This document shows positions 20,555 through 48,083 of a stretch of DNA of 48,083 nucleotides, piece after piece; within the stretch, counting starts at the first letter, position 1; the number at the start of each line of letters is the position of its first letter. This DNA is from a virus. The DNA is taken from the IMG/VR virus record IMGVR_UViG_3300005096_000100, positions 1-48,083 of that record. The stretch is one strand, 5' to 3'. The notes beneath the pieces were generated by a model that saw only the letters and a list, made by a program, of their open reading frames with translations, was not told the origin of the DNA and ran no database searches. The position numbers and the translations under genes are program-made.

Positions 20555-21541
20555 CTACTTCTTGCTCTTCTTCTTTTTCTTCTTCGGCGCAGGACGTTGA
20601 AGCGCTTTCGGTATGGGAGGCATGTCGCCCGGCTCAAGGTTTTCGTCAGGAACATAGCCAGCGTCTTCCTTGACATCGGCACCGTCGGACACGTCCAGGC
20701 CAAGCTCTGCCGCCGCCCAACGAACGAACGTCATCTGCGCTTTAACAGACATGTTGTTAAAAGCATCAACCGTGGTATCGTACACGCTCTTACCCTTACG
20801 GCTCTTAACCGCTTTGGCTTCGGCATCCGTTACGACAGTCAATCCGTTGTTGCCGGCAATGCTCTTAATACTAAGCGCACGTTCTTCCGGCTTCATCGAC
20901 TTCAAAGCATTCTGCACTTGGTCAAAAGAACTTACCTTCGGCGCAGACGGCGCGGCACTGGGACCGGCACCCCGTCCATCGTCCGTACCCTTGGCGGCAC
21001 GGGACTTTTTATTCGCCGCTTTGTTACGGTTACGCAGGTCTTCAAGCATAAGCGCACCAGCGCCCTTGTCTTCGTTTTCCGCAACTCCGATGGCCACCAG
21101 CTTACGGGCAGTTTGCCATCCTTGGTCGATATTAGTTTCAACCCAATCCTGGAATTTGATACCAACATCAGTACACTGTTCTTTAGCGACCGCTAAGCGA
21201 CATGCAGCCGACAAGCGATGGTCGTCAGCTTGACCAGAGAGCTTCGATGCTTTCTTAAACCGGACATTGATTTCGGTCGCCGTCGCTTCAAGCTTGCGCT
21301 CGGTACGCTGCTTGGCGGCAACTTCCTTCAGTTCCTTGTTCGTCTTGTCCCGTTCGGCGTCAGCTTGGCGCTTAAACCGCTTGGCTTCCCGCTCGGCATC
21401 CCGTGCGCTGGCGTTGGCGGCTTTAGCCTTGTCCCTCGCTTGGGCAATCTTGGTGGCCGCGACCTGTTCCGCTTCGGACAGTTCGCGAGCCTTCTTCGGC
21501 TTGGCTTTGCTTTTGGTTTCCGCTTTCTTTTTCGTAGCCAT
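20555..21541 (-). CDS. Lys/Ala-rich, probably DNA-binding protein (328 aa)
   Basis: Start MATKKK at 21541 has an AAGGAAGAC RBS; the longer track ORF overlaps the upstream gene. Both termini are basic (the C-terminus ends KKKKKKSKK), and the central part is coiled-coil-like. Confidence 0.55.
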   Translation of the reverse strand: MATKKKAETKSKAKPKKARELSEAEQVAATKIAQARDKAKAANASARDAEREAKRFKRQADAERDKTNKELKEVAAKQRTERKLEATATEINVRFKKASKLSGQADDHRLSAACRLAVAKEQCTDVGIKFQDWVETNIDQGWQTARKLVAIGVAENEDKGAGALMLEDLRNRNKAANKKSRAAKGTDDGRGAGPSAAPSAPKVSSFDQVQNALKSMKPEERALSIKSIAGNNGLTVVTDAEAKAVKSRKGKSVYDTTVDAFNNMSVKAQMTFVRWAAAELGLDVSDGADVKEDAGYVPDENLEPGDMPPIPKALQRPAPKKKKKKSKK

Positions 21542-21581
21542 GATGTCTTCCTTTTTAAAGTTTGGTGTGTGGTGCGACGTT

Positions 21582-21597
21582 GGTATCACGTGATACC
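21582..21597. repeat. Palindrome, perfect (extends to a 20-bp palindrome, 21580..21599)
   Basis: Intergenic, 40 nt upstream of start 21541. A TTGACA hexamer (minus strand, 21604..21609) lies 6 nt away. Confidence 0.95.
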
Positions 21598-21605
21598 AAA
21601 GAATG

Positions 21606-22097
21606 TCAAACGTTATTTTTGATATCTCCGCAAATAGGAGGCACGGGGTCGTCAAAGCTCCAGCGCAAGTCGCATTTGACGCAGTACATTTCATCGGATT
21701 GCCGAATGGCTTGACAATCAGCACCTAGAATACCTTTAACCGGAACACACAAATCCCCGTCGTTCACATACGCCATAAGGCCGTCTCTAGCGTAGAGTTC
21801 CCCATCCGGCGTTATGGCAAGGCGAACGTCTTCGAATTCATCCCCAAGCGGATCGACAGGCTCTTGGCAAATGCGCTTAGGTAATTCCTCAATAGCGACT
21901 TCAACCGCTTCGTTAAGGAACCCCGGCAGAGATTGCACACCACGAGTAAACTCGATAGCAGGCCGCCACACTAGACCGCAGAACTGGCAAGCATGAGTAT
22001 GGTGGCCTCGATCCACCCATTCGCCGTCATCGATGTGGCGTTCACAGCACTGCGGACAGGATAAAATGAGGTCGATGGCTTTAGCTCGTCCAGGCAT
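21606..22097 (-). CDS. Cys/His-rich (zinc-ribbon-like) protein (163 aa)
   Basis: CPQCCERH...HTHACQFCG and C-terminal CVKCD...PPICG. Confidence 0.5.
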   Translation of the reverse strand: MPGRAKAIDLILSCPQCCERHIDDGEWVDRGHHTHACQFCGLVWRPAIEFTRGVQSLPGFLNEAVEVAIEELPKRICQEPVDPLGDEFEDVRLAITPDGELYARDGLMAYVNDGDLCVPVKGILGADCQAIRQSDEMYCVKCDLRWSFDDPVPPICGDIKNNV

Positions 22098-22774
22098 TAT
22101 TCTACCCTCCAGCCGCGTCGCTTAGCTTCAGCCTCGATCAAGTCAATCTTAAGATTAATTTCGGCGGGGTCGGCGCTACCTTCATAACTCACGCCCCAAT
22201 AAGCTTGCGCCTCGGCTATCGTAAAATCGTGACAGCCGCCGCGAATAGCAGTGACGCCTTTATTTAACCAGCCGATATGGCGGTAGCCTCGGGTGCTTTG
22301 GCCAGCGTCTATCAGATCAACGCCACGTAGATCAGCGTGATTTAGACTAGCGCCACGTAGATCAGCGCCACATAGATCAACGCCACGTAGATCAGCGTGA
22401 TTTAGACTAGCGCCACGTAGATCAGCGCCACATAGACTAGCGCCACGTAGATCAGCGCCACATAGATTAGCGACACTCAAATCAGCGTGATTTAGACTAG
22501 CGTGACTTAGATCAGCGTGACTTAGATTAGCGTCACTTAGATCAGCGTCACTCAAATCAGCGTCACTCAAATCAGCGTGACTTAGATCAGTGTTATTTAG
22601 ATCAGCGTCACTCAAATCAGCGCCACTCAAATTAGCACCAATCTCTAGCGCCCGCCCTACCGCTAGCCCTATCTTTACCCTTAAAGAAGTGTTTTCAGCG
22701 CACTCAATCTCGGCAGTAACCTGTGCTGCGCCAGTCCAGCGGTTAAAAATAACGCAGTTAATTAATGACATCAC
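22097..22774 (-). CDS. Pentapeptide-repeat protein (225 aa)
   Basis: About 22 consecutive A(D/N)LxX pentapeptides (ADLSDADLSDANLSHADL...ADLRGASL...). Confidence 0.85.
   Translation of the reverse strand: MMSLINCVIFNRWTGAAQVTAEIECAENTSLRVKIGLAVGRALEIGANLSGADLSDADLNNTDLSHADLSDADLSDADLSDANLSHADLSHASLNHADLSVANLCGADLRGASLCGADLRGASLNHADLRGVDLCGADLRGASLNHADLRGVDLIDAGQSTRGYRHIGWLNKGVTAIRGGCHDFTIAEAQAYWGVSYEGSADPAEINLKIDLIEAEAKRRGWRVE
22321..22440. repeat. 60-bp tandem duplication inside the pentapeptide-repeat gene
   Basis: 22321..22380 and 22381..22440 differ at only 3 positions. Confidence 0.9.
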
Positions 22775-23007
22775 ATCACCCTCCCCGTGCCTATGTCTTG
22801 GAGACTGTTAAGGAAGTCTAGGATTGTTAAGTGGTGTTCGACCGCACTACTTCGGACCGCAAAGAAATTAAATCCACCCCCATCTGAAAGCGCGATAAGT
22901 GTGCCAATACGCCAATCAGCTACAAGTACGAGGTACCTTTCCCCACCATCAGTTTCAGCTTTTTCAAGCGGACGGATTTCTACATTGCAAGATATTTGAA
23001 ACTTCAT
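22771..23007 (-). CDS. Hypothetical early protein (78 aa)
   Basis: ATG at 23007 has a GGAGAAG RBS, whereas the track start at 23025 is GTG. It is the first gene of the leftward block. Confidence 0.5.
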   Translation of the reverse strand: MKFQISCNVEIRPLEKAETDGGERYLVLVADWRIGTLIALSDGGGFNFFAVRSSAVEHHLTILDFLNSLQDIGTGRVM

Positions 23008-23127: not shown

Positions 23128-23156
23128 TGTATATAGGAAATATTAGTATCTGTCAA
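23128..23156 (-). promoter_or_regulatory. Leftward early promoter candidate TTGACA-17-TATACA
   Basis: Perfect -35 and weak -10. It lies ~115 nt upstream of the first leftward gene. Confidence 0.35.
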
Positions 23157-23203
23157 CACCCCTAATAAACCAATGGCTTAGCTGAATTTTCTTAAGCAAT
23201 TTT

Positions 23204-23245: not shown

Positions 23246-23274
23246 TTGACAGGCGATTACTTCCAGCCTATAGT
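23246..23274 (+). promoter_or_regulatory. Rightward promoter TTGACA-17-TATAGT for the prim-pol/helicase gene
   Basis: Consensus -35, 17-nt spacer and good -10, 36 nt upstream of ATG 23310. Confidence 0.6.
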
Positions 23275-23309
23275 AAACGCCCCCAAAAATACTATTGAAC
23301 AGGACACCA

Positions 23310-25277
23310 ATGCCTAATATGAAGGATGAAGCACTCGCCTACGCGGCGAGGGGCTGGCCTATATTCCCCGCAAGGGCAAACAAGAAACCATATACCGACA
23401 GTGGTGTGTTAGACGCGACAACAAATAAAAAGCAAATAGCCGATTGGTGGACGCTGTGGCCACAGGCTAATATCGCCTTGGATGTTGGCGCGGCTGGTAT
23501 GGTAGTTTTAGACTTTGACCCTGGCTCCGAATGGGGCGAGGTAATTAAGAATGTCGGAAACTTACCTGACACTCATCTAATACAGAATACGCCTAGAGGT
23601 GGCGAACATCATTTCTATCGTAAAGATAGAGATGAAATAATACCACTATCCGCTGGCAAGATCGCAGACCACGTGGACATAAGATCGCACAACTCATACG
23701 TCCTTCTAGCACCTTCAAAAACAAAAGATGGCGTCTACACCTGGGAAGAAGAAGGGAAGCCAGCTTACCGCACTGATAGGTTGGTTGAGGTGGCCGGTAA
23801 AAAACGGGATGTAAGCGAAGACCGCGATGAGTGGATTATCGAACCTGACCTGCCTGAAAGTATAGCGGACTTAACCAAGTGGTTAAAAAAGAAAGCACAG
23901 ATCGCTGTCGATGGACGCAATGGCGATGAAATGGCTTATCGTACAGCGGCCATGTGCAAGTCTTACGGCGTATCACCTGAAACTGCTTTCGACCTTATGT
24001 GGGAGCACTGGAACCCCCGTTGCGATCCTCCCTGGTCTGACGAACAGATAGAACATTTAGAGCAGAAAATAGTCAATGGCTATACCTACAATACGAGCCC
24101 GCCCGGAAACCTGACTAAGGGCTACAAAGCCGCAAAGCGCAAGAAACTATTCAAACGGGTGAAGCAAGAAGCCGAAAGCGCTAAAGGCGACACGGCGCAA
24201 ATCACCGTTGGCCGGTTTCGTATTATCGACCGCGAAGGCATCAAAAATATAAAACCCCCGGAATGGTTGATTGAGGATGTCCTGCCCGAAGGCTCGTATT
24301 CAATGCTTATTGGCCCACGCTCCACTTACAAAACCTTTGTTGCCTTAGACATGGCCATGTCCATAGCTTGCGGCGGAGATAGGTACTACAGCGACGTGAA
24401 GGACTGGCGGGGCCTGTGGGGCTCGGTTAAGGACAAAGGCGCTGTACTGTACGCTGCGGGCGAAGGAAGGGGCGGTTTTAAGCACCGCATCGAAGCTTGG
24501 GAAAGCTACCACTTAGAAGGTGATGAAGTATCTAACTTCTTTTTAGCCGATCCCGTACCGCACCCGACCGAAGAAGACATTGAGGACTTCATAAATTACG
24601 CACTTTTGAAAGCCGACAAATATAAGCTTGTTGTTCTCGACACCGTGGCCCGGTCGATGCAGGGGTTAAATGAAAATAGCCAACAAGATGCGTCTGCTTT
24701 CACCTTACTAATCCAGACTATCCAGCAGGAACTTGGTTGTGCAGTCTTAACCGTTCACCATACAGGCCACGGGTCGGATGATAGAGCGCGTGGTAGTTCT
24801 GTATTCGGTGCGGACGTTGACACCGAATTTGTAATGGAGAAGCGCGATCCTCATTATGTACAGATATCGAATACCAAACAAAAAGACGCTTCCGAATGGG
24901 ACAAACCTAAACTAGTCCATGTCTTTGAACATAAACAAAGCTTAGTCGCATCGACACCACCGCGCAACACCAAAGCAACCGTACAGTCTATCGAAGATAA
25001 ACAACAATCGAAAGGTAAAAAGAAGCGCCGTAATAAGGTGGATAGCGAAGGGATTGACGAAATGATCCGCGATGTTGCTTATAGAGCTATAAAAAAGGTA
25101 CCAGTCAAGGATTGGTCACGCAGCCTATTATCGGCTGCAATTGCTAAGAATAAGATAATCAATTTAGCCGCATCCACCATAAGAACTAAACATATGGACT
25201 GTCTATTAATGGATAAAGACCACTTAATATGGGACTGTTATGATGAAAATAAAGGTGTTTGGCGTTATAATTCTTGA
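23310..25277 (+). CDS. Bifunctional primase-polymerase (prim-pol) fused to a RecA/DnaB-like (AAA_25-type) helicase domain
   Basis: The N-terminus AYAARGWPIFP...VLDFDP is typical of the prim-pol N-domain. The central part has GPRSTYKT (P-loop-like), LVVLDTVARS and VLTVHHTGHG..RARGSSVF. The track start at 23295 is TTG. Confidence 0.8.
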   Translation: MPNMKDEALAYAARGWPIFPARANKKPYTDSGVLDATTNKKQIADWWTLWPQANIALDVGAAGMVVLDFDPGSEWGEVIKNVGNLPDTHLIQNTPRGGEHHFYRKDRDEIIPLSAGKIADHVDIRSHNSYVLLAPSKTKDGVYTWEEEGKPAYRTDRLVEVAGKKRDVSEDRDEWIIEPDLPESIADLTKWLKKKAQIAVDGRNGDEMAYRTAAMCKSYGVSPETAFDLMWEHWNPRCDPPWSDEQIEHLEQKIVNGYTYNTSPPGNLTKGYKAAKRKKLFKRVKQEAESAKGDTAQITVGRFRIIDREGIKNIKPPEWLIEDVLPEGSYSMLIGPRSTYKTFVALDMAMSIACGGDRYYSDVKDWRGLWGSVKDKGAVLYAAGEGRGGFKHRIEAWESYHLEGDEVSNFFLADPVPHPTEEDIEDFINYALLKADKYKLVVLDTVARSMQGLNENSQQDASAFTLLIQTIQQELGCAVLTVHHTGHGSDDRARGSSVFGADVDTEFVMEKRDPHYVQISNTKQKDASEWDKPKLVHVFEHKQSLVASTPPRNTKATVQSIEDKQQSKGKKKRRNKVDSEGIDEMIRDVAYRAIKKVPVKDWSRSLLSAAIAKNKIINLAASTIRTKHMDCLLMDKDHLIWDCYDENKGVWRYNS

Positions 25278-44833: not shown

Positions 44834-44840
44834 ATAAATT

Positions 44841-47800
44841 ATGGCTGAAAATGTCTTTGGAGTGCCTTCTTCAGATACCAGTTTGCGCGATGATTTCGTT
44901 AGTGGTCCGGACCCATTAGAATTACAGCGGTTTAAGAAAGCTGCTTCTGACTTGTTTGGAGATACACCAGACGTTATAAATAACGCACCCGAAGATACAG
45001 AATTACAGCGGTTTAAGAAAGCTGCTTCTGACTTGTTTGGGGATGCGCCGGACACTAAAAAAGCGGAAGCATCGGTCGAGGTATCACGTGATACCGACCC
45101 AGACACGTTCGCTAAGCAGGTTGACACTGCTAATGAACTAAACATACCCGTAGAAGCGGTCGAAGCTGCGCCCGAAGAAGCGGAATTACAACGGTTTAAG
45201 AAAGCTGCTGCTGAACTATTTAGCGACAGTCCGGCCACTGCTAAGTTCATGGAGAACCCTGCTAACGCTAAGTTGGCTAACGACAGCCTTGAAGAGCTTG
45301 GCTTTATAGAAGCTACGGTAAACTCCGTTAAGCGAAGCATGCTGGGTATTGGGCAAGCGTATCAGCAAGTCTTGACGGAGGAAAACCTTGAACAGAGCTT
45401 AGATAGCAGGCGAACTTTTGGAGAAATCCTCGACACTTACGCCGCCCGCAACCCAGGAGCCGTAACTAACCCAATTGATTTAATGTTGTCTTTAGAGCGC
45501 TACGCCAGTTCTAGGATATTTGGAGATGCGGACGAAGGTTTCCGTGGACGCGCGGCAAAGGTTGGGGCGTTAGCCGAAGAGCGCATGAAACTCCCTATGT
45601 CGGACGGCGCTAAAGACTTCATGAAAGGTGTTGAAGATGCCGAAGGTATTTTAGCTAAACTAGCCGCAGTCGCACTGGACCCAGTAGGTATGAGCGCCTT
45701 CGCTGCTGAAGTAGGTATAGAATTCATACCGCAGCTTCTGTTAGCTTCCGCTGCTACCTTAGCTACACGCAGCCCTGCCGTAGGTTCCGCAGCTTTGGGC
45801 TCTCTGTCTTTTGGCACGGAACGTTTTCGTTCCCCGCAGGAATTCCTTCAAGCGGCTGGAGTAGATTTAACTGATCCAGAACAAGTTAATGCTTTGTTGG
45901 CGGACCCGAAGACATTTGAAGAAGCTAAGAAGTTCGGCTTTGACAGAGGCATTGTGATCGGCGCTGTTGATGCTCTGTCCGGTGGCCTAGCCGGTAAAGC
46001 ACTAGCTAATAATCCTCTAGCTAATCTAGTCCTTCAAACCGCTGTGCAAGGCGTTATGGGTGGCGCTGGTGAAGCGGGCGCGGGCTTAGTTACTAAAGGC
46101 GAGATTGATATAAATGAAGTGATCTTCGAAGCTATCGGAGAGTTTGCTACTACGCCTATCGAAGTGGCGGGCATAGGCGGTAGGCCGCTATTCAGAAAGT
46201 TGAAAGAAACGGTTGACCAGAACCGCGCGGAGCAAAGCAAAGTTGCGATGGATGCGCTATCTAAAGCTTTGATCGACTCTCCGCTAACCGAACGCTCGCC
46301 TGAAGCAGCGGCGGAACATGCGGCAGCTAGTTTCCAGGAAGCCGGTGTAGAAGAAATCTATATCCCTATCGAAGCGTTGAATGTAGCGCTTGAAACGAAC
46401 GAAACGCTATTGAACGATTTAGAAGTTCTGGATCAAGTGGCGGATGCTGAAGCGTTTGGCGGGGACATAACGATAACTTCTAAATTGTTTTCGCAATTCG
46501 TATTGCAGAACCCAGAAGTATATACTTTGCTGAAAGACCACATTCGCGCGGACCCTGACGCTGTGACTGTTTCTGAAAGCCAAGAAATTCTAGGAGATAT
46601 CGAGGGGGCCACGGTTGTAGAGGACTTCGCCGGTACTACGGAAGAAGAGGTGTCACGTGATACCCCGTTGGAAGGTACCGTAGAAGAGACAACTAACCCA
46701 GAAGATGTGGCTGTCGTGGAGTTGGCTGAATTCGAAGCGGGCCGTCAAGCGTTGTACTCTACGGCAGAGGAAGCGGGTCTGTCGGAAGCGCTGTTCACGA
46801 CCTATGTTGAAGCTATCCAGAACCGACGTTCGGAAGCCGTCAAGGGCGTAGAGAGGAAGCGTCTGAGACGCATACAGAAACGTAACACTGCGAAGTACCA
46901 GGAAGCTAGGGAAGGACTACGGCAGGGCGTTGAAGAGACCGTAGCCCAACAACCTCTATATCAAGTGCTTTTATCCATAGGCCGTGACAGGCTAAACTAC
47001 GACGCCGTACTGGAGATATTCCAGGGAAACGTAGAAGCCATGAAGCGCTTGCCTAAGCTCAACGGCAGGACGATATACTCCACCAAAACTGATCCAGGCA
47101 TCGATCCAGAGATATTTGCCGATATCCAGGGTTTCGAAGGCGGGGCTGATGTATTCTTATTCAGTTTGTTAGACAGTCCTACGTTCGAACAAGCGGTCGA
47201 GAATGAAATCAACAAACGGATGGAAGAGAAATTCCCGACCATCTTGAGTATTGGGCAACAGGTGGCCGAAGCTTTAGAAACTTTGAACACGCCTGATGCA
47301 CACGGGTTAGTGCTGACTTTTGAGTTAGCAGCTATTAGGAAAGCTAAAGGTGAGAAACGTCTTAAGCGTTCTCTGTTGCGTGTTCGCGCATTGGACATAC
47401 TGGCTAAGTATAGAGTTAGTCAGATCAATCCTCGTAAGCTGGAGACGATGCAGAAACGTGAAGCTGTTCTCGCTCGTAAGGCTCTTAAGGCTGGTGACTT
47501 AGATGCAGCGGGAGTGCATAAGCTCAACCAAATCACTGCTTATGAGATGACGCGGGAAAGCTACAAAATAAAACGTGAACTGGAGATAGGTAACAGGTTC
47601 ATGCGTCGGTTCATCGGGCGCAACAAGAAACATAAAACTCTACCCATCGACCATCTCGACATGATAAAGCAGGTGCTAGATGACTATGACTTTGGTGCCG
47701 GTTCTAAAGCTTCGAGAGATTTGCAAAGCTGGATCGATGCCAAGCAGCAGGACGAAGGCATCGTCATGGACGTTGCGTCAGAGGTCATAGAGAACGACGG

Positions 47801-48083
47801 GAAACGCAACTGGAAAAATATGACGTTGGATGAGTGGCGTGCCTTAAAAAACTCTATTAAAGAAATCCATAAAGCAGGACTAGACGCAAACAAACTCCGC
47901 AACGATTTAGAAAAAGCTGGAGTGCAGGAAATCGTAGATACGATAATCCCTGGCTTGAAAGACAACTTAGATTTGAGGAGTGTACGTCAGGCGGATAACG
48001 TCACTAAGGTTAAGAACGTATCCAGGATAACTACCATGTCTGCTAACGTTGTGGAGAGTTATAAAAAATTAGGCACAAGTGTT
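44841..48083 (+). CDS. 5-prime part of the giant virion/ejection-type protein gene (continues at 92..2062 after the 91-bp overlap)
   Basis: My manual translation from ATG 44841 found no stop up to the window end. It is absent from the ORF track only because it has no stop inside the window. Confidence 0.75.
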   Translation, partial: MAENVFGVPSSDTSLRDDFVSGPDPLELQRFKKAASDLFGDTPDVINNAPEDTELQRFKKAASDLFGDAPDTKKAEASVEVSRDTDPDTFAKQVDTANELNIPVEAVEAAPEEAELQRFKKAAAELFSDSPATAKFMENPANAKLANDSLEELGFIEATVNSVKRSMLGIGQAYQQVLTEENLEQSLDSRRTFGEILDTYAARNPGAVTNPIDLMLSLERYASSRIFGDADEGFRGRAAKVGALAEERMKLPMSDGAKDFMKGVEDAEGILAKLAAVALDPVGMSAFAAEVGIEFIPQLLLASAATLATRSPAVGSAALGSLSFGTERFRSPQEFLQAAGVDLTDPEQVNALLADPKTFEEAKKFGFDRGIVIGAVDALSGGLAGKALANNPLANLVLQTAVQGVMGGAGEAGAGLVTKGEIDINEVIFEAIGEFATTPIEVAGIGGRPLFRKLKETVDQNRAEQSKVAMDALSKALIDSPLTERSPEAAAEHAAASFQEAGVEEIYIPIEALNVALETNETLLNDLEVLDQVADAEAFGGDITITSKLFSQFVLQNPEVYTLLKDHIRADPDAVTVSESQEILGDIEGATVVEDFAGTTEEEVSRDTPLEGTVEETTNPEDVAVVELAEFEAGRQALYSTAEEAGLSEALFTTYVEAIQNRRSEAVKGVERKRLRRIQKRNTAKYQEAREGLRQGVEETVAQQPLYQVLLSIGRDRLNYDAVLEIFQGNVEAMKRLPKLNGRTIYSTKTDPGIDPEIFADIQGFEGGADVFLFSLLDSPTFEQAVENEINKRMEEKFPTILSIGQQVAEALETLNTPDAHGLVLTFELAAIRKAKGEKRLKRSLLRVRALDILAKYRVSQINPRKLETMQKREAVLARKALKAGDLDAAGVHKLNQITAYEMTRESYKIKRELEIGNRFMRRFIGRNKKHKTLPIDHLDMIKQVLDDYDFGAGSKASRDLQSWIDAKQQDEGIVMDVASEVIENDGKRNWKNMTLDEWRALKNSIKEIHKAGLDANKLRNDLEKAGVQEIVDTIIPGLKDNLDLRSVRQADNVTKVKNVSRITTMSANVVESYKKLGTSV
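44919..45224. repeat. Three copies of a ~42-bp unit (GAATTACAGCGGTTTAAGAAAGCTGCTTCTGACTTGTTTGG) in the giant gene
   Basis: The copies at 44919 and 45000 are identical over 41 nt. A diverged copy lies at 45183. The unit encodes ELQRFKKAA(S/A)(D/E)LF. Confidence 0.9.
45080..45095. repeat. Palindrome, perfect (intragenic)
   Basis: Inside the giant gene, read as VSRDT. Confidence 0.95.
46649..46664. repeat. Palindrome, 1 mismatch (GGTGTCACGTGATACC), intragenic
   Basis: Inside the giant gene, read as VSRDT. Confidence 0.85.
47993..48083. repeat. Terminal overlap: identical to 1..91
   Basis: Same as above. The unique genome length is therefore 47,992 bp. Confidence 0.95.

Follow-up and report, generated by a model that had tools for sequence, protein, structure and literature searches.

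We analysed a pentapeptide-repeat gene carried on the minus strand of a 48,083-nt viral genome sequence (IMG/VR record IMGVR_UViG_3300005096_000100), the whole of which is called the window below. Judged from its sequence, the gene is one of a coherent and very large family, almost purely viral, that is defined by a C-terminal domain (hereafter C-domain) and not by the repeats. The most likely reading, to which we give a probability of roughly 0.6, is that it codes for an accessory, immediately-early counter-defence or host-takeover protein that would act by binding. A pentapeptide gene in a phage is as such no surprise; what is new here is a widespread C-domain of a previously undescribed kind, a modular rod whose coding array resembles a variable number tandem repeat (VNTR), and a consistent placement in early or recombination regions.

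Organization of the repeat gene

The open reading frame (ORF) codes for 225 residues from GTG 22774 or 224 residues from ATG 22771. The ATG has GGAGG 8 nt upstream, and the entry in the public protein collection (P0001) is the 224-residue form; the gene more probably begins at this ATG than at the GTG. The parts of the gene are as follows, where pLDDT is the predicted local distance difference test score.

22097..22774, minus strand: repeat gene, 224/225 residues (ORF, PF00805, AlphaFold2)
22637..22774, minus strand: N-terminal cap, residues 1-46, formed by a beta-hairpin (2-24) and then a helix (30-43) (AlphaFold2, pLDDT 96-98)
22307..22636, minus strand: repeat rod, residues 47-156, 22 pentapeptides (register, Tandem Repeats Finder, model, Foldseek)
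22314..22433, no strand: perfect tandem duplication, 2 x 60 bp (60/60 identity; Tandem Repeats Finder period 60)
22100..22306, minus strand: C-domain, residues 157-225, four strands and then two helices (models, alignments A2 and A3)

The protein matched Pfam PF00805 with an E-value of 2.1e-36 (123.5 bits, cut-off 20.2). An earlier sequence-only reading of this DNA had described about 22 contiguous A(D/N)LxX pentapeptides in a 225-residue ORF, and this description is accurate: 22 unbroken pentapeptides fill residues 47-156, equal to 5.5 coils, with Leu central in all of them and A (19), V (2) or T (1) at position i-2. The pentapeptide superfamily is recognised by PF00805, the Rfr fold and at least eight contiguous A(D/N)LXX repeats, and here 22 are contiguous.

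Tandem Repeats Finder resolved positions 22303-22627 into 21.7 copies of a 15-bp period (75% match) and 5.2 copies of a 60-bp period (84%). The near-perfect 60-bp duplication that had been pointed out is real, with 57 of 60 positions identical at 22321-22440 and all 60 identical in the shifted register 22314-22373 / 22374-22433; full identity holds at offsets 22314-22317. The duplicated segment is CGADLRGASLNHADLRGVDL, present twice, and each 60 bp encodes 20 residues, that is, four pentapeptides or one full coil. The suggestion that the helix had expanded recently is supported by this exact duplication, through which it gained one coil.

Predicted structure and surface charge

The AlphaFold2 model, built on 21 relatives, had a mean pLDDT of 90.4 and comprised three parts: the N-terminal cap, a beta-helix with a beta-bridge every five residues, and a C-terminal alpha/beta domain. 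The roughly five turns of quadrilateral beta-helix expected by the sequence-only reading were recovered as predicted structure, with 5.5 coils and a rod pLDDT of 94-98. Foldseek matched the model to solved pentapeptide structures (E 3e-10 to 1e-6), and by both PDB sequence and fold the nearest were cyanobacterial Np275/276, HetL and designed solenoids, ahead of MfpA, Qnr and AlbG. Homologues with 94-100% coverage have all three parts and come from contigs of phage size. Cap residues R11, Q17, A20, I22 and C24 are kept in relatives, and the same cap type is also found on pentapeptide proteins that end in unrelated domains, DUF5758 among them.

The predicted beta-helix is acidic and neither neutral nor basic. 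The protein has an isoelectric point (pI) of 4.77 and a net charge of -15, of which the rod contributes -14, and nearly all of the charge resides in repeats 1-11 (ADLSD and ADLSH type), which bear about 13 surface Asp and zero basic residues. Repeats 12-22 (ADLRG, ASLNH and VDLCG) carry Asp/Arg pairs and are near neutral.

An acidic rod encoded in a replication operon would suit a topoisomerase modulator analogous to Qnr and MfpA, which would mimic a DNA segment and bind host gyrase or topoisomerase IV, inhibiting or protecting it. Phage inhibitors of gyrase are known (Igy and Gip), and the mechanistically characterised bacterial pentapeptide proteins of similar size all act on gyrase (PMC8145042, PMC10886550). 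However, the NCBIfam scores lay far below the cut-offs (penta_rpt_Qnr, 47.0 bits against 240; MfpA, 45.0 against 360; QnrB, 46.9 against 460), there are no Qnr loops, and a 70-residue domain stands in place of the dimerisation helix, so that membership of the Qnr/MfpA/AlbG type, with which the sequence-only reading had compared the protein, was not borne out. Moreover, cyanobacterial and designed solenoids rank well above MfpA and Qnr in PDB sequence and fold comparisons, and a rod whose length and charge vary over the family would poorly suit a fixed enzyme site. We consider this kind of action distinctly improbable.

The C-terminal domain and the family it defines

Modelled alone, the C-domain reached a pLDDT of 88.7. 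Neither the C-domain nor the cap alone had a meaningful match in Pfam even at E 10; a PDB profile search with the C-domain gave nothing below E 0.85, and Foldseek of its model against PDB gave no credible match (best E 1.5). An exhaustive profile search of 1.84 billion representative proteins, by comparison, identified 2,099 clusters at E <=1e-3 and 761 at E <=1e-10. Nearly all of the 2,099 clusters consist of proteins of 66-300 residues in which the domain is C-terminal, and nearly all are small phage proteins. The window protein itself (P0001) matched the profile at residues 148-223 with E 1.8e-23. A word-indexed search listed only proteins of at most 154 residues and over-represented short or fragmentary members, which the exhaustive search corrected.

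The consensus of the domain is RSDGYxF...IxAGCRxFTxxEARxHWxxTRxGTPLGDET..ILDH.E..A.IRG, in which G, GC, W and E are invariant. The window C-domain is a divergent member that retains these invariant residues; it has GCH for GCR and AYW for AHW, and is without TRxGTPLGDET. The phage family of a solenoid plus a RAGC C-domain is unnamed, and is defined here from alignments A2 and A3.

Two candidates from these searches were rejected. Giant proteins of 1,273-2,832 residues with 11-17 matched stretches in the exhaustive search proved to be spurious matches to 'GYRFxxW' hairpin repeats. A Cys-His catalytic dyad in the C-domain was dismissed, as several members, the window protein among them, have Tyr in place of the His.

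Variation of the rod across the family

The arrays that precede the C-domain range from about 2 to about 30 pentapeptides and have varied caps, and in some proteins the C-domain possibly stands alone. In five proteins (P0163, P0198, P0222, P0228 and P0233) it is fused to a YdcK-type solenoid (GDAWVxGDARV), with PF18836 in P0198, which suggests that the rod is an interchangeable module, either a pentapeptide or a YdcK-type solenoid. The comparison of repeat number in relatives, as the sequence-only reading had proposed, gave a range from few to about 30 repeats and a hypervariable array. The arrays are VNTR-like tandem repeats of the DNA, whose 15-bp units reach 80-93% identity in 26 of the 31 relatives, and pairs of alleles identical outside the array differ in array length by 45 residues in one case and by 20 in another. 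The charge upstream of the C-domain had a median of -1 over 274 family members, among which the window protein is the third most acidic.

A functional precedent and the assembly of repeat arrays

The sole functional precedent for a phage pentapeptide protein that we found in the literature is gp60 of Vibrio phage 24. Escapers of Sucellos, a RexAB-like abortive infection system, all carry Y112R and N115D in gene 24_60, and deletion of this gene makes the phage far more sensitive; the authors of that study propose an anti-defence protein (bioRxiv 10.1101/2024.07.02.601686). In its GenBank sequence, gp60 (SBVc24_0060) consists of a cap and a pentapeptide rod followed by a C-terminal region in which the motif TVRAGCQSYTIEEW occurs. 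We infer that Y112R and N115D would fit the ANLYGAN motif of the rod, at outward-facing positions. A Salmonella homologue of gp60, orf19 of the P22-like phage ST104, lies in a P22-type PL operon directly after ral and is followed by 17, c3, kil, erf, abc1 and abc2.

The 274-member hidden Markov model of the C-domain scored 10.6-14.3 bits against gp60 and orf19 over 22-26 residues; of 2,000 shuffles, one attained 10 bits. Neither Vibrio nor Salmonella phages were among the tblastn matches of the C-domain consensus, and a large search with the gp60 C-terminus returned close Salmonella relatives only, with no bridging sequences. Since the similarity is at motif level only, we count gp60 not as a family member but as the nearest analogue and perhaps a distant relative.

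Repeat arrays are hard to assemble. The authors of the phage 24 study resorted to polymerase chain reaction and Sanger sequencing, and many Salmonella homologues are labelled 'partial'; among proteins P0376-P0470 there are dozens of these, because contigs break within the array. In the gp60 record itself (our locus L105, Vibrio phage 24, KJ572844, 12900-13322) the deposited protein has 140 residues, whereas the escape mutations are numbered 110-115 in a rod motif, which indicates that the deposited array is collapsed by about 14 repeats. Given this difficulty, the very short arrays and the exact copy numbers, including that of the window, may be under-estimates, and repeat counts of such genes from short-read assemblies should not be trusted.

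These data bear on the main rival explanation, in which function would reside in the C-domain, binding a conserved host protein or nucleic acid, and the solenoid would be an inert, length-variable spacer or solubility scaffold without mimicry. Of the whole protein, the C-domain alone is conserved over the roughly 2,100 clusters, its G, GC, W and E being invariant and its arginines nearly so, and it is found behind 2-4 pentapeptides, behind YdcK-type solenoids and possibly alone, while rod charge is unconstrained. Rod length, furthermore, changes by 5, 20, 25, 40 and 45 residues and not only by whole coils, so that no fixed geometry between cap and C-domain is required. However, the escape mutations of gp60, if correctly placed on outward-facing rod residues, would mean that the rod surface matters there; the very short arrays may be assembly collapses; and the window C-domain is divergent and without TRxGTPLGDET. 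On balance we regard an inert rod as unlikely, though it is the strongest of the alternatives.

Distribution and gene neighbourhood of relatives

Family loci numbered 99 in viral contigs and 4 in 185,579 one-per-species bacterial genomes, the latter from a pattern-limited scan with strict patterns, which says little on absence from bacterial genomes. The repeat protein is matched in 262 of 50,697 GenBank phage records, and the form with the C-domain occurs in Caulobacter phages RW, RLK, KcrB and GB2A (gp016) and in EBPR siphovirus 2.

The gene is placed in early or recombination regions in several arrangements. It is second after a divergent junction and followed by ERF and single-stranded DNA-binding protein (SSB) genes at locus L002, first with ERF and SSB genes downstream at L006, and third and fourth after Cro/CI-type helix-turn-helix (HTH) genes at L003 and L005. 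At L004 it stands between RecT and integrase; the long early operon there also contains Acb2_Tad1_hairpin and Lar_restr_allev genes. At L001 it is duplicated in an operon with DUF551, RusA, Dam and helicase; the paralogous cap-rod-C-domain genes of this 39-kb phage contig occupy 6611-7342 and 8482-9225, three genes apart in the same early operon. Clustering of the neighbours at 31 loci showed ERF (8), SSB (5) and YqaJ-like exonuclease (4) to be commonest, mostly 2-8 genes downstream. The gene was within three genes of a strand switch in 10 of the 18 loci with a visible switch; this count and that of same-strand genes upstream, given below, are crude and come from a dynamic-programming gene caller that penalises strand switches.

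Of the phages related to that of the window (with 43-51% identity in PrimPol and 57-59% in helicase), L091 alone carries such a gene; there it occupies another slot, and its product combines the same C-domain with another cap and a near-neutral rod. A conserved three-gene system of the repeat gene with the 78-residue and 163-residue genes that flank it was considered and rejected, as the neighbours are shared with no related locus. This patchy distribution together with the unshared neighbours points to a mobile accessory cassette that acts on its own.

An accessory gene with a hypervariable array, some relatives of which lie in temperate phages with integrase or CI/Cro, might also act in superinfection exclusion or defence, or be a lysogenic-conversion moron, and in this way shield the infected or lysogenic cell from other phages. 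Against such a role, PADLOC-DB gave no match for the repeat protein or either coupled neighbour, and no integrase or repressor was found among the window-phage genes examined. The gene resides in early operons of the lytic programme, in the same direction as genes of replication and recombination, and not in slots expressed in lysogeny; the family is plentiful in viral contigs and barely present in bacterial genomes, within the limits of the pattern scan; and the phenotype of gp60 is anti-defence. A protective gene of this sort is therefore, in our estimate, very improbable.

Operon, promoters and genome of the window phage

The repeat gene is the second of three coupled genes behind a 269-bp divergent promoter region, so its description in the sequence-only reading as second gene of a leftward operon just behind an early promoter was fair. 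Early expression is something we infer from this promoter logic. The features of the region are as follows.

23246..23274, plus strand: rightward sigma-70-like promoter, TTGACA-17 nt-TATAGT; sole 11/12 match, precedes the PrimPol-helicase gene
23128..23156, minus strand: leftward sigma-70-like promoter candidate, TTGACA-17 nt-TATACA; 10/12, read from the sequence
22771..23007, minus strand: first gene, 78 residues from ATG 23007 (84 from GTG 23025); ORF, ribosome-binding site GGAGAAG
21606..22097, minus strand: third gene, 163 residues, Cys-rich with two zinc-ribbon-like motifs; ORF, TAATG overlap
21581..21598, no strand: perfect copy of the 18-bp palindrome TGGTATCACGTGATACCA shortly after the third gene, at the end of the unit

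The divergent intergenic region holds the best sigma-70-like match of the genome, that of the rightward promoter. The leftward candidate, 90 bp from it on the opposite strand, is one of eight matches of at least 10/12 in the genome, and was unreported by a stricter scan because position 6 of its -10 hexamer is A. The first gene most plausibly starts at ATG 23007, which coincides with the end coordinate of the sequence-only reading, and its product had no match in Pfam, PHROG, NCBIfam or PADLOC and no tblastn match in GenBank phages. The genes show the arrangement of translational coupling, with two stop-start overlaps: TGATG joins the first gene to the repeat gene, and TAATG joins the repeat gene to the third. 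The 163-residue protein gave a weak Zn_Ribbon_TF match (E 0.004, below cut-off), and its residues 7-63 are 53-54% identical to Citromicrobium and Erythrobacter phage proteins, one of them with the annotation HTH regulator.

Between 23025 and 8441 the minus strand encodes helicase, exonuclease, a gp2.5-like SSB, DNA polymerase and resolvase, with the recombination genes 7-9 kb further down the leftward operon. The divergent ORF at 23295-25277 (plus strand) contains Prim-Pol and AAA_25 domains. Nucleotides 1-91 of the window are identical to 47993-48083, which indicates a closed, complete genome of about 47,992 bp. The genome is podovirus-like and encodes terminase, portal, major capsid and tail proteins; the major capsid protein shares 56% identity with its counterpart in Bordetella phage BPP-1 and Burkholderia phage BcepC6B. 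A megablast search with the 6-kb region had no match among GenBank phages.

The palindrome TGGTATCACGTGATACCA (core CACGTG) occurs 18 times in the genome with at most three mismatches, against 0.03 expected. Its 18-bp copies begin at 2098, 4118, 9743, 12598, 14413, 15972, 19060, 20464 and 21581, and further at 23203, 25595, 28418, 31657, 33800, 36439, 41415, 45079 and 46648. They stand mostly 15-40 nt before gene starts in both operon directions and precede most other genes in the genome; the three-gene unit is without an internal copy, and a degenerate copy lies upstream of it. As RNA the palindrome would form an 8-bp hairpin (-9.4 kcal/mol); it may serve as a 5' RNA hairpin or as a phage-specific site for a promoter or regulator.

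Two further ORFs were noted. The one at 20555-21724 (minus strand), whose probable true start is near 21540 after the perfect palindrome, encodes a Lys/Ala-rich protein ending in KKKKKKSKK; it had no family match, has homologues in the related phages L087, L090, L091 and L093, and may be a DNA-binding or histone-like early protein. The one at 44838-48083 runs across the genome junction to 2062 (about 1,738 residues), and its C-terminal part matches phrog_9880, a 2,231-position profile of unknown function.

Proposed function

A counter-defence or takeover role is favoured because of the promoter position, the acidity, the neighbours, the patchy distribution and the gp60 precedent. In the mechanism that we propose, host RNA polymerase would transcribe the 78-residue, repeat and 163-residue genes from the leftward sigma-70-type promoter once the DNA enters the cell. 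The product, a non-enzymatic beta-solenoid protein of three parts, would then bind a host component of DNA-handling defence or repair and neutralise it early in infection. The strongly acidic N-terminal half of the rod would offer a nucleic-acid-like decoy surface, and the conserved C-domain would supply docking or oligomerisation. The array would evolve by slippage or unequal recombination, in units from one repeat to one coil, which would retune the length and the surface of the rod.

Several observations weigh against this reading. First, the acidity of the rod is not general: the 77 members with at least 12 in-register repeats have a median rod charge of -2, with only 12% of them reaching -10 or lower and 52% at -2 or higher. 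Rod length and solenoid type vary in the family as well. Second, at an assumed 4.8 A or so per coil, a monomer of 5.5 coils would measure about 27 A, a short length for a DNA mimic that does not dimerise. Third, guilt by association in early regions of phages is weak evidence, and 11 of the 31 loci have at least nine same-strand genes upstream, so that a position at the operon start is common and not universal. Fourth, the window C-domain and the C-terminal region of gp60 and orf19 align with an hhalign probability of 51.6% (E 1.5e-4), a similarity at motif level only.

The anti-defence or host-takeover role put forward by the sequence-only reading is supported circumstantially, by early operons, by ERF, SSB, ral, Lar and Acb2/Tad1-like neighbours, by the accessory and hypervariable nature of the gene and by the gp60 precedent. 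Because rod charge, length and solenoid type all vary, the DNA mimicry attached to it cannot be a family-wide mechanism. Such mimicry is possible for this unusually acidic allele, but neither the acidity nor the length nor the solenoid type is conserved in relatives. For this allele, an acidic half-rod serving as nucleic-acid-like decoy, with the C-domain docking or oligomerising, is a tentative proposal whose chances we put somewhat below even.

A broader version of the counter-defence reading can be formulated. The C-domain would be the docking module of a widespread counter-defence platform, and the interchangeable, VNTR-encoded solenoid would be a contingency locus on the phage side, in which slippage retunes length and charge against host sensors of the RexA-like or DNA-end-binding kind. 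The window allele would then be an extreme acidic, DNA-like variant caught just after the expansion by one coil. We offer this as speculation, rather improbable in its entirety.

Implications

Pentapeptide-repeat genes are annotated in hundreds of sequenced phages, and almost nothing is known of their role. The present results shift the question from whether the protein is a Qnr-like DNA mimic to the docking partner of the C-domain and to what the length and charge of the rod tune, and culturable phages that carry relatives exist. If the counter-defence reading is true, the family would be a sizeable new class of phage immune-evasion proteins, and caution would also be due in reporting phage pentapeptide genes as quinolone-resistance genes. 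One phage survey labels a phage-borne pentapeptide protein of the SmQnr family a quinolone-resistance gene (bioRxiv 10.64898/2026.05.02.722434); calls of this kind for phage pentapeptide genes may be over-interpretation.

Comparison with known systems

[quoted passage not shown] It differs from Qnr in an array that is unbroken for 110 residues, without loops of the Qnr type, and from Qnr and MfpA in a C-terminus that forms a 70-residue domain of four strands and two helices and not a tail-to-tail dimerisation helix. In relation to all four, the conserved cap and C-domain are extra modules and the array is a VNTR at the DNA level; moreover, those genes are chromosomal or plasmid-borne, whereas the window gene is phage-borne and presumably early.

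The sequence-only reading had also drawn a parallel with T7 gene 0.3 (Ocr). The position at the start of an early unit is indeed alike, and so are, for Ocr and ArdA, the strong negative charge (pI 4.77 here), the small size and the lack of an enzymatic motif. The parallel to Ocr nevertheless remains positional and not one of kinship in sequence or fold: Ocr and ArdA are helical, whereas the window protein is a predicted beta-solenoid whose acidity is not conserved in relatives, and searches of Pfam, PHROG and NCBIfam with the repeat protein returned pentapeptide families only and no homology to Ocr or ArdA.

The RecBCD inhibitors Lambda Gam, P22 Abc2 and T7 gp5.9, whose genes stand next to those of phage recombinases, have no homology to the repeat protein. 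The likeness to them lies in location, as relatives stand a few genes upstream of ERF/SSB or RecT/exonuclease, the usual slot of such inhibitors. ST104 has abc1 and abc2 as well as the pentapeptide gene, which is thus not simply their replacement.

With gp60 and ST104 orf19 the comparison is closest. Both have another type of cap (HxxW...GxxGxxANL), and their rods are rich in Y and R and near neutral, whereas the window rod is acidic; the proposed target of gp60 is a RexAB-like system. In common, however, all are small phage proteins with an N-terminal cap, an uninterrupted rod encoded by highly repetitive DNA and a C-terminal region after it, and all are encoded by an accessory gene in an early or replication operon. 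In gp60 and orf19 the C-terminal region has about 80 residues and opens with beta-strands and the motif (V/I)(R/K)AGC(R/Q)xxT(I/V)xE.

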